DNA of 64,000 bases from a virus (Duplodnaviria; Caudoviricetes). Within the stretch, counting starts at the first letter, position 1; the number at the start of each line of letters is the position of its first letter. The stretch lies in IMG/VR virus record IMGVR_UViG_3300027819_000006. The stretch is one strand, 5' to 3'. Under the pieces are notes generated by a model, which did no database searches, was not told the origin of the DNA, and saw only the letters and a program-made list of their open reading frames with translations. A program made the position numbers and the translations under genes. Shown here in pieces: positions 3,108 through 35,893 of the stretch.

Positions 3108-4222
3108 TTCATAGCTTTCAGAATATCTTCTCTAGTATAACTTTTTCCAAGTGAAGCTAAATTTTCTGGAAATATAGGCAATTCTTTTTCATGTTTAAGC
3201 ACAGAATATACTCCACTAGATATGGCTAGACCTGTGTCATTAGTCCAAGGTGTTACATGAATATCTTTGAATATATTTTTATCTATTAGTTTTCTATTTA
3301 CAAGTATATTCAAGCTACTTCCTCCAGAGAACACAAGATTCTCTGTCTTTAAAGTTGGATGTAAGCATTCAAAAAAATCTACTATAGCATCTTCAAAGCA
3401 TTTCTGTAACCAAGCCGCTATATCTTGAGGCTCATAACAATCTAATTTTTTGAATAAGTCAAAATTGTACATTCTATCATATATTGTAGGAAAATAGAAT
3501 TTATCATTTACAACTTCAAATAATGATTCTACATCAACATTATCAGCATTACCATATCCTGCAAGTCCCATGATCTTGCCAGGAGCAGTTTCCATAAATA
3601 GATATGGATTGGTAAACTTTTTAGATTTCTCCGGTTCTATTCTTGTGTAGATATATCTTGATATGTTATTGTAAACTTGTCCTAAATTAAATACATTTCT
3701 ATTATTTAGACCATTCTTGAAATGGTTTAAGACTGTAATGCCTTTTGCTCGATCATAGTAAGCAAACAATCCTGTTTCATATTCTGTAACTAATTGGTTA
3801 TTAACTATATGATTATAACTACAACCGGCTCCATCTGCTGAGAAAATACTAGATTTCTCAAAAGGTGAAGAATATGCTGAGCCTAAACTGTGTCCTTGAT
3901 GATGATCACAGAATTCTATTTCAGCATTTACAAATTCATTTTTCAGAATTTTAGTAATTTGCTGCTCTGAATTAATATTAGATGTATGTATATTGTGAGT
4001 ATAGCAAACTACGTCTATGTCTTCTTTTTTTAAGCTATTATTTTCTAATATGTAGTCTATAGATAGAGCAGGATATTCTCCAGAGTATTTTTTTCTGTCG
4101 AGTCGCTCCTCCAATATTGAGTTAATTAATTTGCTTTCAACCCATAAAGAAACACCAGATGAGTGAACATGTTTAATTTCAGTATTAAATCCTACTGCTC
4201 CGTATAATCCTAAAATTTTCAT
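3104..4222 (-). CDS. carbamoyltransferase N-terminal (Kae1-like) domain, stand-alone
   Basis: EERLDRKKY, DHHQGH, DGAG, GKIMGLAGYG, FSGGSSLN, NDTGLAI; start set at MKILG (ATGA overlap with upstream HEG stop). Confidence 0.88.
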   Translation of the reverse strand: MKILGLYGAVGFNTEIKHVHSSGVSLWVESKLINSILEERLDRKKYSGEYPALSIDYILENNSLKKEDIDVVCYTHNIHTSNINSEQQITKILKNEFVNAEIEFCDHHQGHSLGSAYSSPFEKSSIFSADGAGCSYNHIVNNQLVTEYETGLFAYYDRAKGITVLNHFKNGLNNRNVFNLGQVYNNISRYIYTRIEPEKSKKFTNPYLFMETAPGKIMGLAGYGNADNVDVESLFEVVNDKFYFPTIYDRMYNFDLFKKLDCYEPQDIAAWLQKCFEDAIVDFFECLHPTLKTENLVFSGGSSLNILVNRKLIDKNIFKDIHVTPWTNDTGLAISSGVYSVLKHEKELPIFPENLASLGKSYTREDILKAMK

Positions 4223-5160
4223 ATGATATGCCACAATTTATCTATTTCACATTCTCTTATTCTAATTAATATGTATCCATTTTTCTTTGCTAATTTATTT
4301 TTATATTCATCATTAATAACTCTTCCTTCTTGAATCTTATTTATGGGACCTTCAGTGTAACATATAGAGCAGCAGTGCCAATAACAACCATCTACTTCTA
4401 TAAGAATATTAAAATCGGGTAAATAAAAATCATATCGTTTCGTGTCTATTATAAATTCTTTTCTGTATTGTATATTTGAGTCTATAAAAATTTTTCTACT
4501 TTTAAATTAGGTTTAGTATTTGTAGTATTGCCAGTGAATTTTATTTTTCCCTGTCTGTGTTGTTCTTTAGTTAATTCACTTAATATTTTTTTAGTTTTAT
4601 CTGAATGTTTGTGCCCATAGTTAGGCTGTTCTTCTGTGCTTAACAGTGTTTGATAAGCTATTCTTTTGCCACTTTTATAGTTTTCATGAGCTGTTATTCC
4701 TGATTTAGTAGAAGCTTGTTTTACTCTATCATCGCTTTCGCTAGTTAATCCTGTATTCCAAGAAACATTTCCTTTTTTTAAATCGTCCTTTTTCACCCCA
4801 CTTTCTGTTACAAGATAATACTGCATCTTCAAATATAAACCTGTATTCTTTACTAGTCATGCTATGAAAATATTTTAAATGTCGGCTTAAATGTTTAAAT
4901 CTTTTTTCTTCTTTATCTTTTAAACATATCTGGCAAATAATATAATCAATATTTTCTATTCCTTCATAAGGTATTACATTTTTAATTCTGCATGGGATAC
5001 ACAAACCGCTTTTATGACTTCTTCTTAAAATATTACTGCATGTTTCAAAGTTTTTACATTTAACTTTTAAACACTGTATACAAGTCCCTCTTTTATTTTT
5101 TATACTTAAAAAATTATGACATGTTTCAAAGTTTTTACATTTTTTATCACTTTTTTGCAT
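4219..5160 (-). pseudogene. frameshifted homing-endonuclease-like gene (Zn-finger, NUMOD3-like, DUF559/Vsr-like PD-(D/E)xK); may be intact if the indels are sequencing errors
   Basis: three frames join at A7 (4773-4779) and A5T5 (4486-4495) runs; last frame gives YDFYLPDFNILIEVDGCYWH...EIDKLWHII*. Confidence 0.8.
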
Positions 5161-5181
5161 CTACTTTCTCCATAAATACAA

Positions 5182-5275
5182 AAGCTATTATCATATGGTA
5201 TAGACAATAAACAATGTTTATGTCTTACGATAATAGCTTCTGATTTATTAGAATTAGTAGTCTATTGTCTATACC
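5182..5275 (-). promoter_or_regulatory. structured HEG leader A (two interleaved inverted repeats)
   Basis: 5182-5192 pairs with 5229-5239 (11 bp perfect); 5197-5209 pairs with 5263-5275 (13 bp perfect). Confidence 0.65.
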
Positions 5276-5278
5276 AAT

Positions 5279-5288
5279 AATAAATATA
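5279..5288 (-). promoter_or_regulatory. putative late promoter (TATATTTATT variant)
   Basis: one-base variant of recurring TATATTTATA motif directly upstream of leader A. Confidence 0.4.
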
Positions 5289-5324
5289 CTTATAGAGAAA
5301 AATAATGCAATTCAGAGATCCTTT

Positions 5325-5387
5325 CTAAGATATTAATTGCTCTGTAGAAAATCCACAGCAGCCATACAAGCTAACAATTTTAGCCAT
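5325..5387 (-). pseudogene. orphan 5' end of carbamoyltransferase N-domain gene
   Basis: MAKIVSLYGCCGFSTEQLIS* resembles MKILGLYGAVGFNTE at 4222; ATG overlaps upstream TAA. Confidence 0.6.
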
Positions 5388-11974: not shown

Positions 11975-13267
11975 TTACATTATCCTCCAACTTAAATCTA
12001 TCTCATCATCCCATACTCTTATTAATTTATAATTTAATCTTTTGGCTAATTTATTTTTTTGTTTATCTATTTCTATTTTTTCTTTCTGTACAATATTAAT
12101 GGGACCATTTGGATATCTTTCTGGTTTACAATGATAATATGTTCCATCTACTTCTATTAAAATATTATATTTTGGCAAATAGAAATCAAATAACCTTGAT
12201 TTTTTATTTTCCTCATCATATATTCTATATTGATGAATATAGTCTATATTTAAATTTTTTAGGTACTCTTTTAATTGTAATTCACCTTTAGTGTCTTTAA
12301 ATTTTTTATATTTACCATCTATAATATTTTGACAGTGAGTTTTACTCATTTTAGCTTTTGATTCTTCAGAGTGTTTTTGACCCCATCGAGGATTTTTTTC
12401 TCCAATTAAAGTTTTTCTATATTCAGATTGTTTTTTCTTTGTCTCATCAGTAACTATTCTGCCTATTTTACACTTAGACATTTTTTCTAAAGATTCTTCT
12501 GAATATACATTTGTTCTACCATCATGCCATGTTTTACCACCATTTTTATAAAATGTTTTTCTGCTCTCTGATATTTTCTTTTTTGTTTCTTCTGAGTGTT
12601 TATTAGTACCATTTTTTATTTTTGTTTCTTGAGCTTTAATATATGATTCTTTATAGAAAATTTGTTTTTTAGTACAATCACTCAATACATTTCTAAGATT
12701 TTCTGCAATAAAAGTAGAAACATTATATTTTTTTGAATACTCTTCTTTAGTAATACCATGATCAGATAGTAAGTGTTTAGAGTTTATACTTATTTTTATA
12801 TATTTTGTGAAACCTTTATTTTCATTAAAACACTCTTTACATATTACATAGTCTATGTTTTCTTTACCATTTTGATATAAATTTAAAATAAATTTACACT
12901 TTTCATGATCAGTATTTTTGTATATTTTTTTGTTACACACATCGCATATTTTACAATATTCAAAAGATTCAACATTACATGCTTTGCAAATACCTTTCAA
13001 ATTACTTGGACCAAGTCTATTATTACAATTTTCATTTATGCAATATTTAACTCTATTTTTAGTTTGTTTTTTTCTACATTTTTTACAATAGCCACTAAAA
13101 TTGTTACTTTTCAATTTTTCTTTACAGTTTTCTTCTTTACAATACTTTGCGTTTTTAATATCTTTGTCGCTATCTTTCTTTTGACAATCTTTACAAATGC
13201 CATATTTATTCATATTGCCTAATTTCTTTCCACACCCTTCTCTGCTACAATATCTTGCTTCTGCCAT
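11975..13267 (-). CDS. homing-endonuclease-like protein: Cys repeats, NUMOD3 repeats, DUF559/Vsr-like nuclease
   Basis: HSEETKKKIS, HSEESKAKMS; FDFYLPKYNILIEVDGTYYH...IRVWDDEI. Confidence 0.85.
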   Translation of the reverse strand: MAEARYCSREGCGKKLGNMNKYGICKDCQKKDSDKDIKNAKYCKEENCKEKLKSNNFSGYCKKCRKKQTKNRVKYCINENCNNRLGPSNLKGICKACNVESFEYCKICDVCNKKIYKNTDHEKCKFILNLYQNGKENIDYVICKECFNENKGFTKYIKISINSKHLLSDHGITKEEYSKKYNVSTFIAENLRNVLSDCTKKQIFYKESYIKAQETKIKNGTNKHSEETKKKISESRKTFYKNGGKTWHDGRTNVYSEESLEKMSKCKIGRIVTDETKKKQSEYRKTLIGEKNPRWGQKHSEESKAKMSKTHCQNIIDGKYKKFKDTKGELQLKEYLKNLNIDYIHQYRIYDEENKKSRLFDFYLPKYNILIEVDGTYYHCKPERYPNGPINIVQKEKIEIDKQKNKLAKRLNYKLIRVWDDEIDLSWRIM

Positions 13268-13466: not shown

Positions 13467-15014
13467 TTATTTTGCTGTTGCTTCTTTCTTAACTTCTGTC
13501 TCTACCTTCTTCTTCTTAGCTTCCATAACAGCTTTTAACAAATTATTTTTACTCATCTTCTCTGGCTCTCTGATTCCCATATCATCTACTACGTCTTCTC
13601 TGTCTACATGCTGTTTTCTTTGACTGTAGTTTACCCAAGCTAATAATTCATCTTTAGTTAGAGCTTTCAGAACATTTTCTACATTTTCTATCTGTTCATA
13701 TTTCTTGAATTGCTCTACTTCTAGCAACCCGAGATGGTTAGTTTGAGTCCCGTCTTTAATAACATACTCATCCCCTCTGCTTGCAGATAGTCTCCAGTCA
13801 AATTCAGCATCTTTTATTCCATCTGAAGTTGTGCAAATCCAGAAACAATTACCGCATACTTTACAATCATCTTTAAACATAATTACTAATGGAGACCAAG
13901 ATTTCATGTTTGTAAGCTGTATATATATTCCATCATTTCTATTGACTAACTTGTCAAAATATTCTGGAAGACTGACCATTGCAATTCCATCACATAATTT
14001 AGCTTCACCCTCATAAAATATTCCATATTTCGGACCTTCTTCGAATCCATGAATTAAGTTCATTGCATTATATACATTTGGATTATCTTTTGAGCAACAA
14101 ACATGGGGTATAACGAAAGAACCAGCAAATTTGCCTAATGTGCCTCCTACACAAACATTACCTGTAGTACATATACAAGTTCCCTGAAATAAAACTGTAT
14201 ATATGCAAGTTACAGCACAAATAACTCCTGCTGAATTTAATCTACATGTAATTACAAAACCCCCTGAAGCATCAATGCTACTCCCAAAAGTAGCTGCACC
14301 GATTTGACAAGAAGTAGTTCCAATAACAAGAGTTCCAGTAGAACATAAAATAGGAGTAGATATTTGTGTTGCTCCACATAATTGTGGTGAGGTAACAGAA
14401 GTGATAGCACACAAAGTAGAGCCTAAAGTTGCAGCATTTGGTACACAAACAACTCCTCCAGCAGTTATGCAAATTTGTGCTGCATTATTCGTTCCAATCT
14501 GCAATCCCGTATTTGTCTGTGTTCCAATGAATCCAGATGTAGACCCGGCACGTATGTCTACAACAATGTTGTCAGATGTATCTTGAACACGAATCCAGGC
14601 AGGACCAGCCGATGAGGCATGCAAAACTGCAGAGCCGACAGGGCTTGTAGGGCCAAAGCCGAATGACCCAGAATTTGAAAACTGAACTATAGCAGCTGCA
14701 GGAGCAGCAGAGTTAGAGATGATTAGAGAACCTGGAGCTCCAGTGCCTGACCCTCGTATAGCCCATTGAGCATTAGTATTTTTAATGATAATAGTAGAAT
14801 CACCATTTGCACTCGTACTTTCAAATATCGCATTACTGTTGTTAGATGACTGTAGATCGAAACAATATCTATTAGCATGATCTACTCCAACGTTGATCAC
14901 GCAGGCAGATAAGCCAGAAATGCTAAATGTGCCTGCATTATCGAGGACATTTCTCGTCACCTCGTTATTGCGAAAACTCAAATGTGTCGCGAAACTCAAC
15001 TTATTAATCTCCAA
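13467..15014 (-). CDS. probable virion fibre/spike protein with Cys-rich repeat region and C-terminal chaperone-like domain
   Basis: G/S/T/A-rich beta-type N-half; FVIPH...LIHG..EGP...EGEAKL..G...LPEYF..LV...IQLT segment typical of phage fibre C-termini. Confidence 0.6.
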   Translation of the reverse strand: MEINKLSFATHLSFRNNEVTRNVLDNAGTFSISGLSACVINVGVDHANRYCFDLQSSNNSNAIFESTSANGDSTIIIKNTNAQWAIRGSGTGAPGSLIISNSAAPAAAIVQFSNSGSFGFGPTSPVGSAVLHASSAGPAWIRVQDTSDNIVVDIRAGSTSGFIGTQTNTGLQIGTNNAAQICITAGGVVCVPNAATLGSTLCAITSVTSPQLCGATQISTPILCSTGTLVIGTTSCQIGAATFGSSIDASGGFVITCRLNSAGVICAVTCIYTVLFQGTCICTTGNVCVGGTLGKFAGSFVIPHVCCSKDNPNVYNAMNLIHGFEEGPKYGIFYEGEAKLCDGIAMVSLPEYFDKLVNRNDGIYIQLTNMKSWSPLVIMFKDDCKVCGNCFWICTTSDGIKDAEFDWRLSASRGDEYVIKDGTQTNHLGLLEVEQFKKYEQIENVENVLKALTKDELLAWVNYSQRKQHVDREDVVDDMGIREPEKMSKNNLLKAVMEAKKKKVETEVKKEATAK

Positions 15015-15027
15015 TAATTTATATAAA

Positions 15028-16005
15028 TTAACATATTATTCTCCAAACTAAATCTACTTCATTGTCCCAAACTCTTACTAATTTGTAACCTTGCATTTTT
15101 GCAAGTTTATTTTTAAAATCATCATTATACAGTTTGGCATCTATGTTTGAAGGTTTTCTTTCTGATCCTCCATGCCAATATCTGCCGTCTACTTCTATCA
15201 ACATATTATACTTCGGAAGATAAAAGTCATAAAATCTATTTTTAAAATCTATACTTGTTAACTTATATTGTTTAATATATTCTATATTTAATTCATCAAA
15301 ATGTTTTGCTACTGCTAATTCACATTTCGTATCTTTACTATTATTTTTGCAATTTTTAAAGTTGTCTATTGGATTATATTCACCAGCAGCTATTTTCTTT
15401 CTTCTTGTTTCTGACCCTTTTATACCACCATTTTTCAAGCTTTCACATGTATCTTTAGTGAGCCCTTTACACCAACAAGACTTTCCTTTATTGGCATTAC
15501 TTATTTTATTTTTTGTTTCTTGTGTTATTATTCTACCTTTAAGGGATTTAGACAATTTTTGTCTAGTTTCTATAGAAGCTGGTAATCTATTTTTACCTGC
15601 ATCACTTAATTTTTTAGAAGTAATAGCTTTTTCTTCATCTGTTCTATTATTTAATCCATTTTTTATAGCCAATTTTGTTTCTTTTGTTGATATTCTACCA
15701 CTATTTGTATTAGATATCATTTCTCTTGTTTTAAGAGAATGTTTTCTACCATAAAACGGATTATTTTCTCCAGTAGTACCTAATGAAATTGCTTTCTTGT
15801 GTGATTCAGATAAAGGTTTACCAACTTTACTTTTGCTTATCTTTTGTTTTGTTTTTTCTGATTGACCATTTATTTGAGTAGCAGTAAATATTAAATTATA
15901 GTCATAAAATGTTATTCTCATTTCTGCTTGAGACGTTTGATGCGATTTTGCATGCGTACTAGTAATAGTTTTAAAATATTTACCACATATTGGACATTGA
16001 GTCAT
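15028..16005 (-). CDS. homing-endonuclease-like protein (C2H2-like, NUMOD3, DUF559/Vsr-like nuclease)
   Basis: CPICGKYF..ITSTH, HSLKTREMIS, YDFYLPKYNMLIEVDGRYWH. Confidence 0.85.
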   Translation of the reverse strand: MTQCPICGKYFKTITSTHAKSHQTSQAEMRITFYDYNLIFTATQINGQSEKTKQKISKSKVGKPLSESHKKAISLGTTGENNPFYGRKHSLKTREMISNTNSGRISTKETKLAIKNGLNNRTDEEKAITSKKLSDAGKNRLPASIETRQKLSKSLKGRIITQETKNKISNANKGKSCWCKGLTKDTCESLKNGGIKGSETRRKKIAAGEYNPIDNFKNCKNNSKDTKCELAVAKHFDELNIEYIKQYKLTSIDFKNRFYDFYLPKYNMLIEVDGRYWHGGSERKPSNIDAKLYNDDFKNKLAKMQGYKLVRVWDNEVDLVWRIIC

Positions 16006-16039
16006 CTACTTTCTCCTCTTGCTAAAAGATTTTATATAC

Positions 16040-16114
16040 TGGAGCTCCTATAGAGCAAGCTATAGAATTAACTGCTGGCCAAGGCAGAGACTCCATTTAT
16101 TTCATTCAATTCTA
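16040..16114 (-). promoter_or_regulatory. structured HEG leader C (weaker example)
   Basis: 16040-16047 with 16087-16095; 16063-16069 with 16108-16114; internal hairpins. Confidence 0.4.
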
Positions 16115-16124
16115 CTATAAATAT
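16115..16124 (-). promoter_or_regulatory. putative late promoter (ATATTTATAG)
   Basis: TATTTATA core immediately upstream of leader C. Confidence 0.45.
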
Positions 16125-16133
16125 TCACCAGAA

Positions 16134-16835
16134 CTAACTTTTGTCTAATATCTCTTTTAACTCTATATTACTATTTGGTGCTTGAGACTGCCCAAGATCT
16201 GTTACTTTGTAGATTCCATTCTTTTGCATAATATTACCAGAACCAATCCAATCATAAAATTTGATTTTATATTTGCTTAAGTGTTCTGCAGCACATATTA
16301 ATTGTAATACTTCTTTATATCCTAAATGGTTTTTTATCCAATCAATCTTTTCTTTTTCTAAATAATTGTCAGTAATATATCCAAGCAAATTATCTATATT
16401 ACATCTACCATCAAAAATCATTTTTAAATCTTTTTCTACTATATAATCATCTTCATTTTTTAATTTCAAATCCATAAACCAATCTGTAAAATACATATAA
16501 GAATTAACTTTATCTAACTTCTCTTGTTCTATGAACCAGATATCTTTAAATGCTGCATATTTCCACACTCTGAATACTTGTACAATATTAGGGTGTGGAT
16601 GCTGCATAACAATATTCATAGCATTTGCTTCAGTTTTATCAGCAGTAATTTTAAGAACCCGGTCATTTCCGATATAAATTACTACTCCATAAGAACCAGA
16701 GTCTATGAATCTTAGTAAATCATATCCATCAGATTCTAATCTATCTAATACTTGTAGCATTTTGCCTTCTGAATAGTTGAATAATTCTTTAGCAAAAAGC
16801 ATTACTTTGTCTTTTGTTTTAACAGAAGAATCCAT
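16134..16835 (-). CDS. protein-kinase-like fold protein, paralogue K1
   Basis: GSGSYG, VLK, TEA, DWIGSGN, TDLG. Confidence 0.85.
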   Translation of the reverse strand: MDSSVKTKDKVMLFAKELFNYSEGKMLQVLDRLESDGYDLLRFIDSGSYGVVIYIGNDRVLKITADKTEANAMNIVMQHPHPNIVQVFRVWKYAAFKDIWFIEQEKLDKVNSYMYFTDWFMDLKLKNEDDYIVEKDLKMIFDGRCNIDNLLGYITDNYLEKEKIDWIKNHLGYKEVLQLICAAEHLSKYKIKFYDWIGSGNIMQKNGIYKVTDLGQSQAPNSNIELKEILDKS

Positions 16836-16836
16836 T

Positions 16837-17169
16837 TTAATTTTTACCTATTGTAAGCAATATATCATCTATAGTAGTATTTTCATCTAATGTTGATTCT
16901 ATTTCTGTAGCAAATTGAAACTCGCTAGTAGTTCTATTAACAGATATTTCTGCTTTGTCTACCAAATAGCCCTCAACTGTCAAATTATATGTAGTCAAAA
17001 GAATTCTCGGACCATCAGAAAAATCTTGGAGATTATTTTCGTCTGTTGCACTGTCAAATATAGCATAGAAATAGAAACCACCATCTGTCATTATATTTCC
17101 AGGCTGATATTGCTTCCAGATACGCTGCGAGAACAGATTGTTGCTATATTTTATTAGATTTTTTTTCAT
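16837..17169 (-). pseudogene. orphan duplicate of the 3' third of the gp15-like gene
   Basis: about 73 of 102 aa identical (manual alignment) to C-terminus of 17963..18769. Confidence 0.85.
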
Positions 17170-17285
17170 GTTCTAATATTATATCATCAATGGTTATATT
17201 GCTATTTTTATAGAAATTCAATCTAAACTTCATCATTAAAGAATTACAATATATTTCTGCTGATAAACTTTTATTAATCAACTGT

Positions 17286-17828
17286 TCAAGATTTGGAGTA
17301 TATCCTTTTATTTCTTCTATCATCAGTATCTTTAGTGAGACCATCAATCCAAGTCTTTCCGCCATTTGCAAAAAATTTTTTACGTGATTCAGACATGTTG
17401 TGTCTAGCTTTGTCTGACATTTTTCTACCCTTTAAAGCTTTAGATATTTTTTCTCCAAAACTTTTAGGTCTTTTCGTTCCTTTTCTTTTTCTATTACATT
17501 CTATAAGTATAGCTTGAGTTCTGGGATGCATTTTTCTACCTTTTTTGCTTTTAGAAATTTTTGCTCTATGTTCCTTAGAAAGTTTTCTGCCCTTATTAGC
17601 TGCTGATATTTTCTTTTTGTGTTCTTCTGTAATTTTGCAACCTTTTCTAGTCATAGAATGAGCATGAAAAGAGCAGCGGACATTTTCTCCTATTGTCTGC
17701 ACATTACATCCTTCTTCTATACAATGATGAACTATTTTGTCTCTACATGGTTTGCAAACAGTTCCTCCAACATGAATAGTTTTAGCTTGCAATTTATTTA
17801 TTCCACATTCTGAACATAATTTACTCAT
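17286..17828 (-). pseudogene. truncated HEG (Cys N-terminus and NUMOD3 repeats, no nuclease domain seen)
   Basis: ITEEHKKKIS, LSKEHRAKIS, MSDKARHNMS; stops after GGKTWIDGLTKDTDDR. Confidence 0.65.
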
Positions 17829-17838
17829 TTATATCTCC

Positions 17839-17928
17839 ATAAAATAAAAAGCTGAATAGATCGGTCTGCAATGAATTATAATTCAGCAGCTATTCAGCTT
17901 CCTATTTTATGTATCATTGCCAACCGAT
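17839..17928 (-). promoter_or_regulatory. structured HEG leader D (two interleaved inverted repeats)
   Basis: 17849-17859 with 17890-17900 (11 bp) plus 17839-17846 with 17903-17910; 17860-17874 with 17914-17928 (13 of 15). Confidence 0.65.
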
Positions 17929-17930
17929 AT

Positions 17931-17940
17931 TATAAATATA
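17931..17940 (-). promoter_or_regulatory. putative late promoter TATATTTATA
   Basis: recurring motif. Confidence 0.5.
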
Positions 17941-17962
17941 AATGAACGAGATAAATATGTCA

Positions 17963-18769
17963 TTAATTTTTACCTAAAGATATTAAAATATCATCAATAG
18001 TTGTATTTTCGTCTAAAGTTGATTCCACTTCAGTAGAAAATTGAAATTCAGATGTAGTTCTATTGACTTCTATATCTGATTTGCTTATTAAATATCCTTC
18101 TATTGTTAAATTATAGATAGTCTTGTATGTTCTTGCACCCTCTGAAAAATCTTCTTCAGTATTATCTTCATTTGAACTGTCAAATATTGCATAAAAATAA
18201 AATCCCCCATCAGTTTTTATATTTCCTGGCTGATAATTGTTCCAAATTCGTTGATGAAATAAATTGCTACTGGAAACATAAGAACTCCAAAACGAGACAT
18301 AATATTGTATATTAATAAACATGGGATATGGCAATTTATATACTTCATAAACTGGCAAATTCTTCCTATATTGCCCAGCTGGCCCTACATTCCATTTATC
18401 TGAAAAGGGTACTCTTTGAGTGTCATCAAATTTACTTTGTGCTATTCTTTTATGAAATGTAATATAGGGTTTGCCATTTTCACTTCTAACATATCTAGTA
18501 GGATTTGGAGAAATATCTCCTCTTCTAATAGAAATGAGTGGTAATTTTAGCATACCCTTGTGATCTCGAAGTTCATTCAAATTTTTGTCATCAGATCCTT
18601 GTAATTGTACCCATCGCTCCCATGCACCAAATAGAACAGGGACTTTTCTGTCTCTAATTATTAGATTTGTTTTATTTTGAAGAAAAGAAAATACAGATCG
18701 ATCAATTGCTAATAAATCTACACCTTCTATTGGAATATTCATTACATATGGATCTTTAGGTTGAGCCAT
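17963..18769 (-). CDS. gp15: tail terminator / sheath stabiliser (T4 gp15-like)
   Basis: VPVLFG..ERW, LKLPLISIRR, LPYPMFINIQY; position after neck genes. Confidence 0.6.
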   Translation of the reverse strand: MAQPKDPYVMNIPIEGVDLLAIDRSVFSFLQNKTNLIIRDRKVPVLFGAWERWVQLQGSDDKNLNELRDHKGMLKLPLISIRRGDISPNPTRYVRSENGKPYITFHKRIAQSKFDDTQRVPFSDKWNVGPAGQYRKNLPVYEVYKLPYPMFINIQYYVSFWSSYVSSSNLFHQRIWNNYQPGNIKTDGGFYFYAIFDSSNEDNTEEDFSEGARTYKTIYNLTIEGYLISKSDIEVNRTTSEFQFSTEVESTLDENTTIDDILISLGKN

Positions 18770-18777
18770 TTTGATTT

Positions 18778-19653
18778 CTACTCTATTTTAAGTATATTGA
18801 ATTTCTTATATTTTAAATATTGCTCTATTTCGTGATTTGTAGAGGGTATTATTCTATCAAACTGTTTTATATTCTTTTCTATAGCTCTTTCTCTTGGATT
18901 TCTATCTGCTCTAACTCTAAATACTATTCTCTTATCATTTGCCCAAGATCCATACTCTGCAGTATAAAATTTAAATTTACCATCTTTGAAAGTATATGTT
19001 TTTTGTTCTAATATTGTTTTTAATTTCAATTGCTCTAATATATCAGTAACAACTCCACTTGATATAGACATACTTAAATCGATAATTTTATAATATCCAT
19101 TCTTTTGCATTATATTTGATGAATGCCAATCTTTAAAAATTATTTTCATTTCTTTTAAATCATTTGCTGCATCTATCATATTTTTCAAAAATTTTGCTTC
19201 ATTCGGTGCTATATTATTATCGCAGTATAAATTTTTTAATAACTGTTTTGCATTATTTTTATTAACTATACTTAAAGATATAAAGTCATCTGTTATATGC
19301 TCTAACAATTTCCATAATGGCAAAGCAAAATCATTATTATTTCTGAATTTAAATAGCCAATCATCAATGATATCTTTATTTATAGATTTTAACTTTTCTT
19401 GTTCTATAAACCATACATCATTTATTGAATTGAGTTTAAATACTCTAAAAATTTTTACAATATTTTTAAAATTTTTCCCAATTATAATAGAAGACGAATT
19501 AGCTTCTCTTTCATCAGAAGTTATTTTTAGAACTCTGTCGTTGCCTATATCATAAGCATATCCAAATTCTCCTCTACCTATAAATTTTATTAAAACATAA
19601 TTATTTCTTAATAATTTATTTTCTACATCTTTAAAATTTTTAATATTGTACAT
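18778..19653 (-). CDS. protein-kinase-like paralogue K2 with C-terminal extension
   Basis: GRGEFG, VLK, DWHSSN, IDLS. Confidence 0.85.
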   Translation of the reverse strand: MYNIKNFKDVENKLLRNNYVLIKFIGRGEFGYAYDIGNDRVLKITSDEREANSSSIIIGKNFKNIVKIFRVFKLNSINDVWFIEQEKLKSINKDIIDDWLFKFRNNNDFALPLWKLLEHITDDFISLSIVNKNNAKQLLKNLYCDNNIAPNEAKFLKNMIDAANDLKEMKIIFKDWHSSNIMQKNGYYKIIDLSMSISSGVVTDILEQLKLKTILEQKTYTFKDGKFKFYTAEYGSWANDKRIVFRVRADRNPRERAIEKNIKQFDRIIPSTNHEIEQYLKYKKFNILKIE

Positions 19654-19661
19654 AATTTTTA

Positions 19662-20357
19662 TTAATTGAGTAATGTTTTCAATTTAAATTGCTCTAATAT
19701 GTCTGTCACTTTTCCAGTAGATTTAGAAACACCTAAATCTGTTATTTTATAGTTGCCGTCTTTCCATAGAATATTTCCTTCATGCCAATCTCTGAAACTT
19801 ATCCCTACTTTTTCTAAATGCTTTGCAGCATCAAACATGTCTATAATAAAATTGTACTCATCAGATTTCATTTTATGTCTCATGAATGAGCCATAAAATC
19901 TATCTGCCGAAATATAACTCATTTCACGCTTTACAATCATGTCGATTAATTTTTCTGCATCTGTTTGCAATAAACTGTGAAAATGAGAATTGAAATAAGC
20001 TGTATCAGAAATATAAGTTAGTAGCTTTTGAAGTGTGCCTCCAATACTTCTATTTTCATATGATCTTTTGTCTTCTAAATACTGCTCTATCTTATCTTCA
20101 TCTATATGCTTTAATTTTTCTTGCTCAATGAACCAGAGATAGTCTACATTTTTCAACTTAAATACTTTATATATCTGTACAATGTTTTTATGCGGATGCT
20201 TTTGTATCACAGTAGAAGAATTAGCTTCAGACTCATCTTTGGTAATTTTAAGAACTCTGTCATTGCCAATGTCATAGGCTGTGCCATATGTGCCACTGCC
20301 AAGTTTATGATCAAGACTGTAGCCATGTTTAGCTAATCTTTCTTTAATATCAGACAT
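19662..20357 (-). CDS. protein-kinase-like paralogue K3
   Basis: GSGTYG, VLK, DWHEGN, TDLG. Confidence 0.88.
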   Translation of the reverse strand: MSDIKERLAKHGYSLDHKLGSGTYGTAYDIGNDRVLKITKDESEANSSTVIQKHPHKNIVQIYKVFKLKNVDYLWFIEQEKLKHIDEDKIEQYLEDKRSYENRSIGGTLQKLLTYISDTAYFNSHFHSLLQTDAEKLIDMIVKREMSYISADRFYGSFMRHKMKSDEYNFIIDMFDAAKHLEKVGISFRDWHEGNILWKDGNYKITDLGVSKSTGKVTDILEQFKLKTLLN

Positions 20358-20362
20358 TCTAT

Positions 20363-21283
20363 TTATACTATTTCAAATTTTGATAGTTTCAAAGTGCTGT
20401 AATTAGCATCCCATTTAATGGTGCAATTGTGTTTACTATCAGCTTGCATCCATTGACTAAATATTTGCTCTACTAATTCATCTTGAGCCATCATTAGAGG
20501 AGGATCAAATTTAACTCCAGCATCAATCATTCTTTTAACTTGCTGATAGCGATCTTTCTGATCTTCTTTGATTATCTGCTTTAGTTTCATTTCACGCTCC
20601 AATATTTCAATTTTTTGTTGAGGAGATATAGATGCTCCAAGATCTATAAGCATATATCTTCCATTTTTCTGCATTATATTGCCAGAATGCCAATCATGAA
20701 AACGAATTCCATTTTCATAAATATGTTTTGCTGCAGACAACATATCTACAAAAAAAGAGTGAAATCCTTTAGACATTTTTTCTACTTTATATTTTCTATT
20801 TATAAACTCATGTTTATCAACCATTCTCTTTACTATTCCCTCTATATCATAATTTTTAGTTACTGTTCTGCTTTGAGAATAATATGTAAGAATAGATAAA
20901 ATATTTTTATAATATGGAGAATCTTCTGCTTCTTGTATTATTGTGTATAGCAACCATTTGTTTATTTTGTTTTCATCTATGGGCTCTAATAATTCCTCTT
21001 CTTCAAAATAGCAATCTTTTTCACTACTAAATTTAAATACTCTATATACTTTTACTATATTTGGATGTGGATGGTACATAATTATATTCATTGCATCTGC
21101 TTCTGAGTCATCGTCTGTTATTTTTAGAACTCTATCAGAAGATATTTTAAATGCTTTGCCACAAACGCCTGCACCTAAATAGTTACTTAGATGGTAGCCT
21201 AATTTGTTTAGCTTGCTTTCTACTGCACCTATATCTACATGTTCTTTAATTATTTTCATTATGGAACTATTATTCTCCAACAT
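20363..21283 (-). CDS. protein-kinase-like paralogue K4 with C-terminal extension
   Basis: GAGVCG, VLK, HDWHSGN, IDLG; internal MKLKQIIKE. Confidence 0.88.
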   Translation of the reverse strand: MLENNSSIMKIIKEHVDIGAVESKLNKLGYHLSNYLGAGVCGKAFKISSDRVLKITDDDSEADAMNIIMYHPHPNIVKVYRVFKFSSEKDCYFEEEELLEPIDENKINKWLLYTIIQEAEDSPYYKNILSILTYYSQSRTVTKNYDIEGIVKRMVDKHEFINRKYKVEKMSKGFHSFFVDMLSAAKHIYENGIRFHDWHSGNIMQKNGRYMLIDLGASISPQQKIEILEREMKLKQIIKEDQKDRYQQVKRMIDAGVKFDPPLMMAQDELVEQIFSQWMQADSKHNCTIKWDANYSTLKLSKFEIV

Positions 21284-22182
21284 GTGTCAATCTCATCTTC
21301 CCAAACTCTAATTAATCTGTATCCATTATCTTCTGCTAACTTGTTTTTTTCTATATCATTTATAACGACATATTTTTGAGTTTCATTTATGTGACCATTT
21401 ACATATATAGAGGGCTTACAGTGCCAATAACAACCATCTACTTCTATAAGAATATTATATTCTGGTAAATAGAAATCATAAAATTTATTTTTACTACTCT
21501 TTATAACAAATTGTTGTATATATTTTATGTTGTTTTCTTCTAATATTTGCTTTAATTTTAATTCAGGTTTTGTATTTCTGCCGCAAAACATTTTATGTCT
21601 ATTATTTTTCATTCTTATGCTGCTTTCTATAGCTGCTTCAGGATGCTCTAAATAATAAGCTTTTTTTGTTTTTGATATAAGATTTTTCGTTTCTTTTGTA
21701 TGTTTTTTACCATAGAATGGATTTTTATCTCCAATTTTAAGTTTTTGTTTTTCAGACATTTTAAATCTAGTTTCAGCAGTATGGTGTTTACCATACAGAG
21801 GATGATTTTCTCCCTTAATACTATCACTGATTTTTTTCTTATGTTCTTCTGTCAGAGGTTTTCTTTCGCTATTATATATTTCTTTAAATCTATCTTCTCC
21901 AAGATATTCTTTCATGTCGAGGTTTTTATTCCATGTTTCATTTTCAGAATAATATTGTTTATTGCTCTCAGATATAAGATCTTTAGTTTCTTTTGTATGT
22001 TTCTTATTATAAAAACCATTACCTGCGCCCATCTTAGAAAGTCTAAGTTCTTCAGAAAATATTGGAGCATCTGGAAATCTTGTTCTGTATTCAAGAGTTG
22101 TAATGCTATGTTTACTTTTCAAGTGAGATGGCGTGATAAAATTAAATTTTTTATCTTTCGGACATAGTTCGCAATTTATCAT
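21259..22182 (-). CDS. homing-endonuclease-like protein (NUMOD3, DUF559/Vsr-like nuclease)
   Basis: HTKETK repeats; YDFYLPEYNILIEVDGCYWH. Confidence 0.85.
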   Translation of the reverse strand: MINCELCPKDKKFNFITPSHLKSKHSITTLEYRTRFPDAPIFSEELRLSKMGAGNGFYNKKHTKETKDLISESNKQYYSENETWNKNLDMKEYLGEDRFKEIYNSERKPLTEEHKKKISDSIKGENHPLYGKHHTAETRFKMSEKQKLKIGDKNPFYGKKHTKETKNLISKTKKAYYLEHPEAAIESSIRMKNNRHKMFCGRNTKPELKLKQILEENNIKYIQQFVIKSSKNKFYDFYLPEYNILIEVDGCYWHCKPSIYVNGHINETQKYVVINDIEKNKLAEDNGYRLIRVWEDEIDTCWRIIVP

Positions 22183-26386: not shown

Positions 26387-27613
26387 TTATCCCATTATAT
26401 AAATACCCCCTCCAGCAAAAGGAATAAATTGCATCTGTCTACTTATAGCTTCTGCCATTTCTGCATTTCTCTTATATATTTCTATATCTGATGTTTCTTC
26501 TAATCCAGCTTTCAACTCTTCTCTTAATTCTGTCTGTCTAGTCAAAGCTTCTGAAACCAACTGTTCTCCATCCATAGTTATATCACCATTAGGAATTGGA
26601 ATGCTAGAGAATCTTCTTCTGATTTTACCAAGCATCTCATTAGACAGAGCTAATGTATATTGTCTAATCCATCTTCTACCAAATGCATTTATCTTGTCAT
26701 AGGTTATGTCTGTAAATGGAACATTTGTAATATTAGTTACACCAGAGATTGATGGATCCCCGCCGGTTGTTGAATAGTCTGCATTTAAGGGATTATAGTC
26801 GTAGAATGTATATTCTATCCATATCTTCAAATTTTTAGAAGGTTTAGGCAGAAGCCTAATTCTGTCTCCATAGATATTATATGTATGATTACTTCTTCTA
26901 ACTCTGTCATTTGTCTCTAACATTCCAGCTCTTAGAATGTCTGTCCATATGGGCATTATATAGAATATAGTTTCCATATTCATCGATTCATATTGAAACT
27001 CTTGAGATAATGTATTAACAGAAGAATATGGATCATAAAACCTGTATAGTGAAGATGGTTCGGAATGCCATACTTTTCTAACTTCTATTCTTGCTGAAGA
27101 TACAGATTGTAAATATGATCCTATAGAACTTCCTGATAATTCATCTGTAAAATTATTTAGTAAACTATAATCCATGCTTGTTGAATTTATTGTGACATAA
27201 GCTCGTCTCATATTTTGAAAACCACCAGCACCGGCTTCTGTGCCATATTGAGCAGTAGATCTCATTAGATAATCCATAGTTTCTTGAGGTAGTTTGTCTG
27301 TAACATTTATATTTCTGTCCATTCCTAAATAATTGTCAATCCAGTTTTTAGCTTGGAATTGATTGACAATAGCAGAATATTCCATATTAGATTCTTCAAA
27401 TGCAGCAAATATTTGTAGATTGTCAATTTCACTAGGTAAACGAGGTTCATTTTGTCTATACCTGACCCAAGTAATAATAGACTGAGCTTCAGCTGATAAT
27501 ATATTTAGATTAATAGACATCGGAAGAGTTTGTGCTGATGCAGAAAATACAGACTGGAAACTAGAATTAGATGCTGTCTGAGATAATGTTGCGAAAAAAT
27601 TTTCAAAAGCCAT
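26387..27613 (-). CDS. gp13: neck protein (T4 gp13-like)
   Basis: C-terminal WIRQYTLALSNEMLGKIRRRFSSIPIPNGDITMDGEQLVSEA motif. Confidence 0.8.
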   Translation of the reverse strand: MAFENFFATLSQTASNSSFQSVFSASAQTLPMSINLNILSAEAQSIITWVRYRQNEPRLPSEIDNLQIFAAFEESNMEYSAIVNQFQAKNWIDNYLGMDRNINVTDKLPQETMDYLMRSTAQYGTEAGAGGFQNMRRAYVTINSTSMDYSLLNNFTDELSGSSIGSYLQSVSSARIEVRKVWHSEPSSLYRFYDPYSSVNTLSQEFQYESMNMETIFYIMPIWTDILRAGMLETNDRVRRSNHTYNIYGDRIRLLPKPSKNLKIWIEYTFYDYNPLNADYSTTGGDPSISGVTNITNVPFTDITYDKINAFGRRWIRQYTLALSNEMLGKIRRRFSSIPIPNGDITMDGEQLVSEALTRQTELREELKAGLEETSDIEIYKRNAEMAEAISRQMQFIPFAGGGIYIMG

Positions 27614-28563
27614 TACTTTTCTCCATATAGTATATCTTGATCCCAGACAGAAAATTTCATATTATTTAGTTTGCAAAATTCTTCAGCTTTTTCTATTTTT
27701 AGCACAGTATTGTCTAAATCATATTTTATTTTCCATTTGGGCTTTACTTCTATCACTTCTTTTGAATTATCTAGATGAATTATTAGAAAATCAGGTACAT
27801 AATGTTTAGTATGTGTTATAGGGATTATGATTTTATGTTTTCTTTCTTGTTTAAAATCAATGATTTTTCCATCAAACATCATTTCAGACAGTATTTTGAT
27901 AGCGTCTAATTCCATAGATGATCTATAGTATATTACTTCATTTTTTATTCCGCAATAGTAGTGTCCACTCTTGCCATAACTATACACCTTTTGAGGATTT
28001 TTTATATTTCTTTCACACTGACTTATTGACATTTTTCTTTTAGCTTCTTCTGAATGTACATATCCCTTTTTTATGCCCCAAATTTTACCAGAATCTATAG
28101 TTCTTTTTCTGACTGCTTTAATGTTGGCACTTAGTTTAGCTTTTACTTCTGGAGTATTTAATCCTTTCATCATCTTATCACGGACTTCAGGTCTAGCCAT
28201 AGCTTTTGTAGTGTTTTCAGAAATTAATTTTCTTTCTTCTTTTGTATATGTCTTATCCAGTGTAGAAAATGTAGCTAATCTTATTTTAGTAGCTTCTGTT
28301 AAAATTTTTGAACCTGGAAACTCTTTTTTGTATTCTGCAGTTGAAATTTTATGATATCTGCTTATATGAAAAGCTAAACTTTTAAATTTCTTTTCTTCTA
28401 TTTCATTAATTTTAGTGCACAGACAACATGATATCCTTTCTGTCAAGTCCACATCTTTCAGCAGCCTTTCTTTGACCATTTTTATGAATGATTTCTTTTC
28501 TTCTTTGCCAGCCAGACTTTTCAGATGCTCTATTTCTTGTGCTGTAAATTTGTCAAATGCCAA
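27613..28563 (-). CDS. NUMOD3 plus TnsA/gp4-like PD-(D/E)xK endonuclease
   Basis: HSEEAKRKMS; YRSSMEL...YVPDFLI...EVKP. Confidence 0.75.
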   Translation of the reverse strand: MAFDKFTAQEIEHLKSLAGKEEKKSFIKMVKERLLKDVDLTERISCCLCTKINEIEEKKFKSLAFHISRYHKISTAEYKKEFPGSKILTEATKIRLATFSTLDKTYTKEERKLISENTTKAMARPEVRDKMMKGLNTPEVKAKLSANIKAVRKRTIDSGKIWGIKKGYVHSEEAKRKMSISQCERNIKNPQKVYSYGKSGHYYCGIKNEVIYYRSSMELDAIKILSEMMFDGKIIDFKQERKHKIIIPITHTKHYVPDFLIIHLDNSKEVIEVKPKWKIKYDLDNTVLKIEKAEEFCKLNNMKFSVWDQDILYGEK

Positions 28564-32066: not shown

Positions 32067-33371
32067 TCAATCCTCCACTTTACAGTGTGTAATGATTGTC
32101 TGTTTGCAACCCTTGAATTCAGAATGATCTTTTACAGTTCCTTTAACTTTGTAGAATTTTCCTTCATCAAGATTGTTTGAAGAAGCAAACCAATTAACTT
32201 TATTTCCACTCATATCTTCAAAGATGTGTAGATGAGAAATTCCATAAGCTGTTTCAAAGCTTGTAACTTTATTTAGTTTCAGCTCAAAGATTTCTCTCTT
32301 TCCAATTGTCCCAACATGGTTTGAAATCTTTGCTTCTTTTGCAATCTTCTCATAATGTTCAACTTCTCTGTTATATGCAGGAACCAGACAAGCTGCAAGA
32401 TTGACCATTTTATGATCAATCATCTCTGAAGAAGTTATGACTCTCAGATTAAAATCGAAATCTGAAAGAGTGTCAACATCTGCATTGACAAATTTATTTG
32501 TAGCCCAGTCAATGACTTTGACAATCTTTTCTCTGTTCTTTGTAGTAATCTCTACCTTGTCTCTCGAATCAAGTTTGAATCCACGGAGGCCATAATAGAA
32601 ATTGTCAAATGCCCTGCTTGAAGTTGTAGGAATGTAGTAATCTGTCTTACCAGAATCATAGAGTTCATTAGACTTCTTCTTACTCATCCAACCAAACTTT
32701 TCAATGCAAGCATCTACATAGACAAGAAACTGATCAAGAGGGATGTATCTACTTTCTCTGTGACCGTAATAAGAACCTTCACATTCATCAAAAGTAGCAG
32801 CAATTGTATGCCAAAATTCAGCATATGCCAAGAAATATTCAGGATTGGGATGACCCAAAAAATCTCGAATACAGCTTCTGCCAACCTGCTTATAGTCATT
32901 CAAATCATTCTTGACTACAAAAGTTTCTCTACGATAGATTCCTTTGTGGCAATGATCACAATTGTAACGATTAGCATCTCTATACTGAAGAGGAACTTCT
33001 TCTCCAGGAACTTTCTTGATCAGCACTGCATTTGCTTCATCAGAAACATGCTGAAGTTCTGCAACAAGATGCCATCCATTGATTACTGGAGAGTCTCCAA
33101 CAACTTTTACATCTAACGTCTTGATCATTCCAAGAGACTCTCCAGTAGTTTCATCCTTCTTTTCTACAAAATGTTCAGAAACTACCACAATCTCAAGAGT
33201 ATTGCATCCTAACTTCACAGCTTTCTTGTTTATCTTTTCAATCTTCTCTTTCAGAATGAACATATTAGATTCAGGAATGCTTCTAACTTCTGTCTCTTTG
33301 AGTTCCATTTTAGAGCTCCTGAATTGAGATTGTCTATTTTGTATGGTTAAATATAAACAATCTATGTTCAA
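32067..33371 (-). CDS. conserved phage protein with CxxC and C-terminal OB-fold-like domain (start probably MELKE at 33308)
   Basis: CDHC...VGRSCIRDF; HVGTIGKRE...YG...HIFED..GN...WFAS. Confidence 0.65.
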   Translation of the reverse strand: MNIDCLYLTIQNRQSQFRSSKMELKETEVRSIPESNMFILKEKIEKINKKAVKLGCNTLEIVVVSEHFVEKKDETTGESLGMIKTLDVKVVGDSPVINGWHLVAELQHVSDEANAVLIKKVPGEEVPLQYRDANRYNCDHCHKGIYRRETFVVKNDLNDYKQVGRSCIRDFLGHPNPEYFLAYAEFWHTIAATFDECEGSYYGHRESRYIPLDQFLVYVDACIEKFGWMSKKKSNELYDSGKTDYYIPTTSSRAFDNFYYGLRGFKLDSRDKVEITTKNREKIVKVIDWATNKFVNADVDTLSDFDFNLRVITSSEMIDHKMVNLAACLVPAYNREVEHYEKIAKEAKISNHVGTIGKREIFELKLNKVTSFETAYGISHLHIFEDMSGNKVNWFASSNNLDEGKFYKVKGTVKDHSEFKGCKQTIITHCKVED

Positions 33372-33378
33372 AAGTAAA
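33350..33378 (-). promoter_or_regulatory. early-type promoter TTTACT-N17-TATATT
   Basis: 33346-33381 is identical (36 nt) to 43204-43239. Confidence 0.75.
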
Positions 33379-33386
33379 GGACTTTT

Positions 33387-34982: not shown

Positions 34983-35893
34983 TTATTTTATTTCTTTTAT
35001 CGACCATCCATTAGTGTTGTTTCGCAATTCTGTTTTTCTATTACATCTGCTTTCTGATATGATGCCCTTGTCTATATGAATTCTTATAGTATTATATGAA
35101 AGTTTATTCTCTTTACAAAATTCTGTTAATCTGCCGTGCACCATATAATAATTATCAGATCTATCTATTAAAACATAAGTTTTTGCATTGCTTTTTACTC
35201 CATTTCTTTTTCTTGTTTCTTGAATTTTGTTTATATGCTCTTTAGTAAGTTTGCATCCAGTTTTATGTTTTTTAGTAGATATAGATATCTTTTCTCTCGT
35301 TTCTAAGCTGTGAGTTCTTCCATAGAAACTATTTCCTTCTCCAGTTTGAGATTTACTAATTTTATCTTTATTTTCTTGTTTATATAGAGGATTGTCTTTT
35401 TTAAATCTTTCAGATGCTTCTTTTTTTCTTTTTTCTATTTCTGAACTATCTTTCATTATTTCTTCATAAGACTTTCCTTTAAAAGCATCAGAAAGTTTTT
35501 TTTTTGTTTCTGGTAGGGTTTCATGTCCCGTAAGAGATTTTGATATTTTTGATTTTATATCGTCAGATCTTTTTATACCAAAATTTACACTATCTTCTCC
35601 AGCGCCCCAGCCATCTCCTCCAGGAGTTATGTTATATCCATCTTTCTGACTATTATAGAATTTAATATAAAACATTTCTTTGTTTTTTATTTCATTTATG
35701 TCATCTGATTCATCTAAAAGCTTTACTTCAAAATTTTCTTTTGAATATTTTTTAATAGCTGAAGCTATAATACTTCTACCCCTTTTACAATCATTGTTGC
35801 AATGTTCTTCAAATCTTTCTTGTATAGTTTTAGAAGTATATCCTATGTAGCATTTATTGTTATACATGTTATTTTATATATTTTATATTTCAT
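34983..35893 (-). pseudogene. GIY-YIG homing endonuclease with NUMOD3/NUMOD1-like tail; one-base frameshift at about 35860
   Basis: MKYKIYKITC in one frame, NNKCYIGYT..RF.EH...E..YI...GYN in the next. Confidence 0.8.

Follow-up and report, generated by a model that had tools for sequence, protein, structure and literature searches.

Why does a phage gene for a tail protein carry its 3′ end twice, once in place and once stranded beyond a neighboring endonuclease gene? The question is raised by a locus in a 64 kb stretch of DNA (hereafter, the window) from a virus of the Duplodnaviria (Caudoviricetes; IMG/VR record IMGVR_UViG_3300027819_000006). Every gene in this region is encoded on the minus strand. 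In transcription order, a kinase-like gene (K2) is followed by a complete gene resembling T4 gp15, a spacer, an open reading frame (ORF) with NUMOD3 repeats, a stretch of unassigned DNA, a second copy of the last 102 codons of the gp15-like gene (the orphan) and a protein-kinase-like gene (K1) (Table 1). Both the endonuclease gene and the orphan are absent in the nearest relative, the two ends have diverged under purifying selection, the duplication begins at the edge of a highly conserved block, and similar arrangements recur elsewhere in the window. The initial annotation of the locus, made from the sequence, had read it as the fossil of an end replacement in which an endonuclease cassette brought in a new 3′ end and left the old one behind. 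The architecture, the one-ended relative, the divergence of the two ends and the discordance between the two parts of the gene speak for this reading; its assignment of old and new ends found no support, and the endonuclease gene lacks a nuclease domain. On balance, we give an even chance to the view that related phages exchanged the end of this gene in an endonuclease-linked event, as in the WHO elements of yeasts and the mobile ORFs of mitochondria, and that the locus is the footprint.

The two copies of the last 102 codons align without gaps. Their products are identical at 72 of 100 residues (BLASTP E-value 2e-53), close to the value of about 70% noted initially, and their DNA is 74% identical (81 differences in 306 nucleotides). 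The repeat finder reports them as families D8 and D10 with a spacing of 1126 nucleotides. In a DNA alignment, the homology begins abruptly at position 17145 of the orphan, equivalent to position 18271 (codon 167) of the gene, and the sequences upstream of these positions are unrelated. ORF analysis, BLASTP and the repeat finder bear out the gene order and the second copy described in the initial annotation, and the stop codon of the orphan indeed abuts the start of K1. The same annotation had called the orphan start-less, which does not hold: its ORF (16837–17169) starts with an in-frame ATG at 17169, eight unrelated codons before the homology. No Shine-Dalgarno-like or other ribosome-binding sequence precedes this ATG, and the gene caller chose an internal ATG of the orphan that yields an 84-residue product. 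The orphan contains neither a stop codon nor a frameshift and keeps 15 of 25 highly conserved family sites, compared with 13 of 25 in the in-gene end. Among 1.84 billion representative proteins, the matches are full-length terminators of 230–380 residues, one protein of 581 residues, and fragments that comprise the orphan itself, one frameshifted gene and one untraced 158-residue protein (P0169); no family of free-standing orphan homologues was found in this set. In a search of 5.8 billion proteins, the orphan matched only the window's own gene and one relative among longer proteins. A candidate second orphan (P0159) was rejected: on its 830-bp contig, a frame change interrupts what is a full-length gene.

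The same gp15-like protein is present on contigs of approximately 272 kb from groundwater metagenomes, which represent an uncultured jumbo phage. The order of gp15, NUMOD3 ORF, short ORF and K1 is identical in two contigs, one of 271,885 bp from an ENA assembly and one of 17,067 bp from Logan; the Logan contig covers window positions 14500–21448 with no differences at a depth of about 18x. These ENA and Logan contigs possibly derive from the source sample or from closely related samples. The contigs of four groundwater runs contain the same sequence or low-depth pieces of it. Joints seen in the contigs of these runs were considered as variants and rejected; their sides are very short and lie within repeated endonuclease-gene sequence.

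The gene with the duplicated end can be identified as the tail terminator in a neck and tail module of the T4-like type. The window protein has 64 homologues of 262–334 residues, and 16 of 34 homologues match the Pfam family PF16724 (T4-gp15_tss, the T4 gp15 tail sheath stabilizer) with a best E-value of 3e-6. The window protein itself falls below the PF16724 threshold and has no Pfam or PHROG match. An AlphaFold model built on the family alignment (predicted local distance difference test score 70; predicted template modeling score 0.62) finds T4 gp15 as its top Foldseek matches (9mkb_AB, E-value 2.6e-8; 4huh and 4hud), followed by the tail terminators of P1, cyanophage Pam3, PVC, pyocins and T5. 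The folds of the window protein and T4 gp15 (PDB 4hud, 4huh and 9mkb; PF16724) are alike, with Foldseek E-values of 2.6e-8 to 9e-6 and a probability of 1.0, and the lengths are similar (268 and 272 residues), but the two proteins share only about 12% sequence identity. The Pfam matches of the homologues and the Foldseek result together justify the label "gp15-like" of the initial annotation. The Foldseek alignments cover 218–260 columns even against terminators of 150–200 residues, and the last 102 codons therefore belong to the core fold rather than to an appended domain. As in T4, gp13-like and head-closure genes lie nearby: a gp13-like neck gene is located upstream at 26387–27613, and PF26809 is found in the relative L001 described below. 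Adjacent to this neck gene, a 316-residue ORF (27613–28563) combines an N-terminal part that resembles the N-terminal region of the endonuclease family of this locus (phrog_22215) with a C-terminal head-closure domain (phrog_218), and may represent a neck gene to which an endonuclease remnant has been fused.

The nearest relative of the locus has a single gene end. It is the sole close relative in the databases searched, and its gp15 (P0002, 79% amino acid identity) occurs on several Logan and ENA contigs, the longest of which is L001. A DNA search of phage GenBank records with the window gave no match, and a tblastn search of these records gave nothing beyond Flavobacterium phages at 27%. No closer relative was detected in IMG/VR by protein and by a degenerate DNA pattern, in JGI metagenome contigs by alignment and pattern, or in GTDB genome contigs by pattern. 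In L001, gp13, several small genes, an orthologue of K4, an 82-codon gene, gp15, a 128-nucleotide spacer and an orthologue of K1 follow one another, with no endonuclease gene and no second gene end at gp15. Two ends in a relative that lacks the endonuclease gene would speak against a replacement, as the initial annotation had pointed out; L001 carries one end only. The spacers of L001 and the window exhibit a weak but colinear similarity, which 6 of 500 shuffles equal in score. The orphan and K1 meet in a compact, direct junction, unlike the K1 orthologue of L001, which is separated from gp15 by the spacer. K1 is 61% identical to this orthologue in amino acid sequence, and its first eight residues do not align. 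Kinase-like genes diverge fast at this locus (49–61%), and a more distant relative (L009, 48% amino acid identity) has neither kinase-like genes nor an endonuclease gene beside its terminator. The neighboring genes display a mosaic divergence from L001 (38–87%) with no clear breakpoint.

The kinase-like genes of the window and L001 also differ in composition. What forms the last ~80 codons of K2 in the window is a gene of its own, of 82 codons, in L001 (4514–4762; 78% amino acid identity). L001 is devoid of clear counterparts of the kinase part of K2 and of K3, and its 204-residue gene is only 34% identical to K3. From these sequences, the kinase array appears to be undergoing reconstruction by fusion, duplication or loss.

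The two parts of the terminator have different histories of divergence. Between the window and L001, the N-terminal 166 residues are 89% identical and the C-terminal part is 63% identical. Among 91 homologue pairs with comparable N-terminal identity, this difference of 0.26 ranks first, followed by 0.17. Such discordance is as expected of exchanged gene ends and implies that the end was probably replaced in at least one of the two lineages, possibly in both; faster C-terminal evolution in this clade is an alternative explanation.

The divergence between the in-gene end and the orphan resembles that between phages. The two ends differ with a non-synonymous distance (dN) of 0.19 and a synonymous distance (dS) of 1.45, giving a dN/dS ratio of 0.14 (bootstrap 0.05–0.26). 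The dS between the window and L001 is 1.0–1.25, and the silent sites of the two ends are equally saturated. When all 81 differences were simulated as neutral, the frame remained open in 0.8% of copies, and the expected amino acid identity was 47% versus the observed 72%; with half of the differences neutral, only 6% of the copies stayed open. Nearly all of the divergence between the ends would thus have arisen in working genes, as indicated by the dN/dS ratio, the simulations and the conserved residues. In a three-way branch estimate from the pairwise values, non-synonymous change on the orphan branch is roughly double that on the in-gene branch, with the ratio still near 0.2, and the orphan would therefore have spent only a short time as a relic. 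These values fit two phage lineages whose gene ends were brought together and argue against a recent local duplication.

The junction is located beside the most conserved part of the protein. The homology breaks between codons 166 and 167, at the start of a helix predicted in the AlphaFold model and one to two codons after residues 154–165, whose mean conservation of 0.89 is tied for the highest in the protein. The initial annotation had placed the junction near 17146, in agreement with the boundary at 17145/17146 and the edge of this block. Homing endonucleases typically recognize conserved coding sequence. In the first ten codons past the junction, 8 of 10 residues but only 19 of 30 bases are kept between the copies. 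This pattern is compatible with a recoded target but no more than suggestive, because the third-position identity is about 53% throughout.

The unassigned DNA upstream of the orphan harbors a candidate third terminus. Positions 17181–17200 match the in-gene terminus at 17988–18007 in 18 of 20 nucleotides, a pattern that occurs nowhere else in the window, and the local DNA alignment score of this stretch is higher than that of all control segments of the window (970 of 970). The in-frame, colinear likeness to the last 45 terminator residues is weak (z 3.5), and a profile search was not significant (E-value 0.6). The segment at ~17156–17200 may have been left by an earlier round, as the vestige of a third gene terminus, or it may be filler that repair copied in.

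The ORF between the two ends retains the DNA-binding part of an endonuclease gene. It contains a Cys-rich N-terminus and NUMOD3 repeats in two stretches (PF07460, E-value 9e-7) and matches phrog_314 and phrog_655 ("homing endonuclease"). Intact paralogues at 15028–16005 and 21259–22182 combine NUMOD3 with a C-terminal Vsr/DUF559-like PD-(D/E)xK nuclease domain. A tblastn search with six paralogues found no match to the nuclease domain in any frame of 16800–17900, and the similarity of the ORF to its paralogues stops near 17330. The initial designation of the ORF as a NUMOD3 gene remnant is consistent with the presence of the repeats and the absence of the nuclease domain in all frames. Database relatives that cover at least 40% of the remnant match its NUMOD3 part only, with at most 47% identity over approximately half of the length. 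Judging from the paralogues, the remnant probably once carried a Vsr-like nuclease domain, and the element now appears unable to move by itself; the ORF may alternatively be a DNA-binding protein kept for another reason. The window contains at least seven genes or fragments of this NUMOD3/Vsr-like endonuclease family. One of them, a 430-residue gene at 11975–13267, occupies the same position in L001 (10437–11726) with 81% amino acid identity. Some endonuclease genes are therefore old residents rather than recent arrivals.

The spacer between the terminator gene and the remnant has features of a regulatory leader. Endonuclease genes can be controlled by hiding the ribosome-binding site, as for I-TevI. 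The spacer is predicted to fold into a long hairpin (−39.4 kcal/mol, z −5.65) in which the GGAGAU ribosome-binding site of the endonuclease gene (17833–17838) is paired with bases immediately beyond the gp15 stop codon; the main stem is followed by a U-run. A terminator scan made no call in the spacer, the loop of the hairpin being long. The promoter-like motif TTTATAATA lies at 17928–17936, between the two pairing partners of the hairpin, and transcripts that start at this motif would be devoid of the masking arm, suggesting that the spacer may control the endonuclease gene. Homing-endonuclease genes of T4-like phages are under transcriptional and translational control (Edgell et al. 2010, PMC2988022). 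The window contains 10 matches to TTTATAATA versus 5.2 expected. The minus-strand sites at 4447, 17928, 28603, 35950 and 46383 are intergenic and upstream of genes, several of them endonuclease genes, and TTTATAATA is a candidate promoter motif of the phage.

Similar arrangements are observed at two other genes of the window. A self-BLASTP comparison that took in all minus-strand reading frames of the window identified two clear partial copies of non-endonuclease, non-kinase genes, and both flank an endonuclease gene; no other partial copy of a non-endonuclease gene longer than 37 residues was found in the window. The second copy belongs to an RNA-ligase gene and is a mirror image of the terminator case, with the 5′ end stranded beyond a GIY-YIG endonuclease gene (Table 1). 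In a third, short case, a relic of the start of a carbamoyltransferase gene is separated from the gene itself by a broken endonuclease gene; the motif LYG..GF occurs only at this relic and at the carbamoyltransferase gene in the six-frame translation of the window. The three cases involve three endonuclease genes from at least two families, at both 3′ and 5′ ends of genes, and in our view they speak for a recurrent product of endonuclease-induced repair and against a single accident. Elsewhere in the window, a 37-residue frame (43152–43262) shares 17 of 20 residues with the N-terminus of a 434-residue protein (32070–33386) and could be a further stranded gene start or a leader peptide common to the two.

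Table 1. Coordinates of the terminator locus and of similar arrangements in the window
Feature	Position	Strand	Evidence or remark
K2, kinase-like gene	18778-19653	minus	First in transcription order, before the gp15-like gene
Complete T4 gp15-like tail-terminator gene (predicted), 268 codons	17963-18769	minus	ORF, homologues, Pfam, Foldseek
In-gene copy of the repeated 3′ end, codons 167-268 and stop	17963-18271	minus	Direct-repeat families D8/D10, DNA alignment
Spacer, 134 nucleotides, with promoter-like motif and long hairpin	17829-17962	minus	Fold energy, motif scan
NUMOD3 ORF, 180 codons, putative endonuclease gene remnant	17286-17828	minus	Pfam NUMOD3 alone
Unassigned DNA, ~140 nucleotides, between NUMOD3 remnant and orphan	17146-17285	minus	
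Orphan copy of codons 167-268 and stop	16837-17145	minus	Inside ORF 16837-17169
K1, protein-kinase-like gene	16134-16835	minus	ORF; ATG 1 nucleotide after the TAA of the orphan
Mirror case, whole	33834-36199	minus	ORFs, self-BLASTP E-value 8e-27
78-codon orphan copy of the RNA-ligase 5′ end	35963-36199	minus	56% amino acid identity over 77 codons, dN/dS ~0.11
GIY-YIG endonuclease gene of the mirror case	34983-35867	minus	Spacer with TTTATAATA before it
Complete RNA-ligase gene	33834-34982	minus	Start directly after the stop of the GIY-YIG gene
Third, short case	4219-5387	minus	Relic of carbamoyltransferase start, broken Vsr/DUF559-type endonuclease gene, then the gene itself
20-codon relic of the carbamoyltransferase start	5325-5387	minus	

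The arrangement can be accounted for by an exchange of gene ends in a mixed infection. In this scheme, a free-standing endonuclease gene of the local zinc-finger/NUMOD3 type, with its own promoter and hairpin leader, would have resided just downstream of the terminator gene of a related phage. During the mixed infection, the terminator gene of the other phage would have been broken at about codon 166/167, beside the most conserved motif, and the break would have been repaired from the endonuclease-bearing genome. The repaired gene would be a chimera of its own 5′ part and the 3′ end of the donor, followed by the spacer and the endonuclease gene of the donor. The 3′ end of the recipient, tightly coupled to K1, would have been displaced downstream and become the orphan. 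The diverged end within the gene would be expected to protect the gene from recutting, and the orphan could serve as the downstream homology arm for a next round. Later loss of the nuclease domain would have turned the element into a fossil. The cut and where it fell, the direction of transfer and protection by the new end belong to the inferred part of this scheme.

A number of observations weigh against this scheme. The assignment of the orphan as the old end and the in-gene copy as the new one, made in the initial annotation, is not supported by the comparison with L001, to which neither end is clearly closer: the in-gene end is 64% identical in amino acid sequence and 71% in nucleotide sequence, and the orphan is 60% and 68% identical, respectively. 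Trees of the C-terminal part change with sampling. A 35-row tree groups the in-gene end and the orphan as sisters (support 99/89), and a 15-row tree groups the in-gene end with the relative (support 77/65); the third grouping is not rejected by the approximately unbiased test (p-value 0.10). The informative sites form a mosaic. At 11 consecutive sites (residues 199–216), the relative agrees with the in-gene end, and the two share derived states at positions that are 91–97% conserved elsewhere; at residues 177–178 and 218–265, the relative mostly agrees with the orphan (8 of 9 sites). In addition, the spacer that resembles that of L001 stands after the in-gene end and not after the orphan. An in-gene end inherited vertically, with the orphan and K1 as newcomers, would fit both residues 199–216 and the spacer.

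The state of preservation and the searches for related alleles raise further difficulties. The orphan frame is still perfectly open although the endonuclease gene is already broken. A single event does not predict the candidate third terminus, and its position upstream of the better-preserved orphan misfits a simple WHO-type array because the newest pieces there lie nearest the gene. Neither a donor genome nor an unoccupied allele of the same phage was found in the databases and runs searched, and no endonuclease-free variant was detected in the contigs and reads of the four groundwater runs. No intact orthologue of the remnant is present in the searched databases, nor any nuclease domain in the ORF.

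Some of these difficulties would be relieved if the direction of transfer were reversed and the event were a one-off accident. A free-standing endonuclease gene would then have been resident between the spacer and K1, and illegitimate recombination, one-ended or by end joining, would have linked the middle of this gene to codon 167 of the terminator gene of a co-infecting relative. The nuclease domain would have been deleted in the process, the orphan and K1 would be foreign, the in-gene end would be native, and there would be no self-propagating cassette. Such a join would account for the absence of the nuclease domain precisely upstream of the orphan, and it accords with the colinearity of the in-gene end and spacer with L001 and with the derived residues at 199–216 common to the in-gene end and the relative. 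The limited identity of K1 to its L001 orthologue, with its unaligned first residues, and the compact, native-looking junction of the orphan and K1 that is absent in the relative point in the same direction. The divergence of K1 is not special, however, among the fast-diverging kinase-like genes of this locus. Moreover, the break adjoins the most conserved motif, as expected of a nuclease target, and the same topology is found again, with other endonuclease types, at two further genes within 64 kb, which is unlikely for accidents. We judge the reversed, accidental origin, the main rival, rather unlikely, and the endonuclease-linked exchange remains the reading that we prefer.

An old local tandem duplication of the 3′ end, with later insertion of the endonuclease gene and retention of the short ORF as a separate small protein such as a free C-terminal piece of the terminator, is improbable. 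A kept small protein would agree with a frame that is open over 110 codons in DNA of 30% G+C and has an in-frame ATG, with the family's conserved residues in the orphan, and with the sister grouping in the 35-row tree. The nearest relative lacks a second copy, however, and the silent sites are as saturated as those between different phages. The fold spans the junction, as seen in the 218–260 aligned columns even with small terminators, no ribosome-binding sequence precedes the ATG, and free-standing homologues do not form a family among the 1.84 billion representative proteins.

Although the window was assembled from a metagenome, an assembly artefact is practically excluded because copies that are 74% identical cannot be confused by an assembler and because independent ENA and Logan contigs agree, with 0 differences over 6.9 kb at ~18x, and the BLASTP E-value of 2e-53 makes a chance similarity of the two ends equally implausible.

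The closest known counterparts of the locus are found in fungi. In the mechanism proposed for the WHO elements of the yeasts Torulaspora and Lachancea, resistance comes from the new end, and the fragment of the old end acts as a homology arm (Coughlan et al. 2020, eLife, PMC7282813). These elements likewise consist of a full host gene, an endonuclease gene and a fragment of the 3′ end of the host gene, and evolution of the host gene is discordant between its 5′ and 3′ parts (PMC7282813). The endonuclease genes and fragments of WHO elements decay afterwards (PMC7282813), whereas the fragment in the phage locus is still an intact frame. WHO nucleases are intein-derived proteins of the LAGLIDADG/zinc-finger type that act on a nuclear gene of a diploid eukaryote, in contrast to the free-standing NUMOD3-type phage gene. 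Cleavage and allele specificity were demonstrated for WHO elements; for the phage locus, they are part of the proposed scheme.

Mobile ORFs of mitochondria (mORFs) provide a second parallel. In the account of Beaudet et al. (2013, PMC3630166, citing Paquin et al. 1994), a foreign C-terminal end and an endonuclease ORF are inserted into atp6 of Allomyces macrogynus and into atp6, atp9, cox2 and nad3 of Glomus, and the native end is left downstream as a duplicate. The inserted ends are 64–81% identical and the native ends 91–98% identical in nucleotide sequence to sister species (PMC3630166), unlike the phage ends, neither of which stands out in its identity to the relative (71% for the in-gene end and 68% for the orphan). 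The endonuclease ORF is in several cases fused in frame with the host gene (PMC3630166), whereas the phage ORF has its own spacer, promoter-like motif and ribosome-binding site.

Among phages, the free-standing endonucleases of T4-like phages (seg and mob; "intronless homing") are similar in that the gene lies beside a conserved gene and spreads by break repair with co-conversion of the flanks (Edgell et al. 2010, PMC2988022). Genes are split in some cases, by mobE in nrdA of Aeh1 and by mobA in gene 39/60 of T4 (PMC2988022). In the phage cases described, the host gene either is left intact or is divided into two functional parts (PMC2988022), whereas its end is duplicated at the present locus. 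The 2010 review of mobile DNA in T4-like phages covers intron-borne, free-standing and gene-splitting endonuclease genes and describes no duplicated or orphaned gene end (PMC2988022). Full-text literature searches aimed at phage precedents of end replacement returned no phage example; end replacement is documented in yeast nuclei and fungal mitochondria. The phage locus has the WHO/mORF architecture, comprising an endonuclease gene between a full gene and a copy of its end, occupied and unoccupied forms, and discordant gene parts; it lacks a present-day nuclease.

The finding comes from one lineage with one relative and a dead endonuclease gene, which limits its reach. Short ORFs that duplicate gene ends beside endonuclease genes are probably relics and not genes, and annotation should treat them with caution. 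A broader proposal, which we put forward tentatively as a possible though doubtful generalization, is that free-standing endonucleases of large phages form self-propagating cassettes of the WHO/mORF kind. A diverged end would keep the gene working and immune, the old end would serve as a homology arm, and in repeated rounds, more than one of which may be recorded at this locus, the ends of virion and replication genes would be driven to evolve rapidly and as mosaics. Phage homing endonucleases are known in introns, in inteins, between genes or splitting genes, and end replacement would be a fourth way, by which an endonuclease gene could occupy an essential gene and leave it functional. Should the mechanism be general, it would provide natural pairs of sensitive and resistant targets for mapping nuclease specificity, and it would explain the mosaic, fast-evolving ends of conserved phage genes and the stray fragments beside endonuclease genes.

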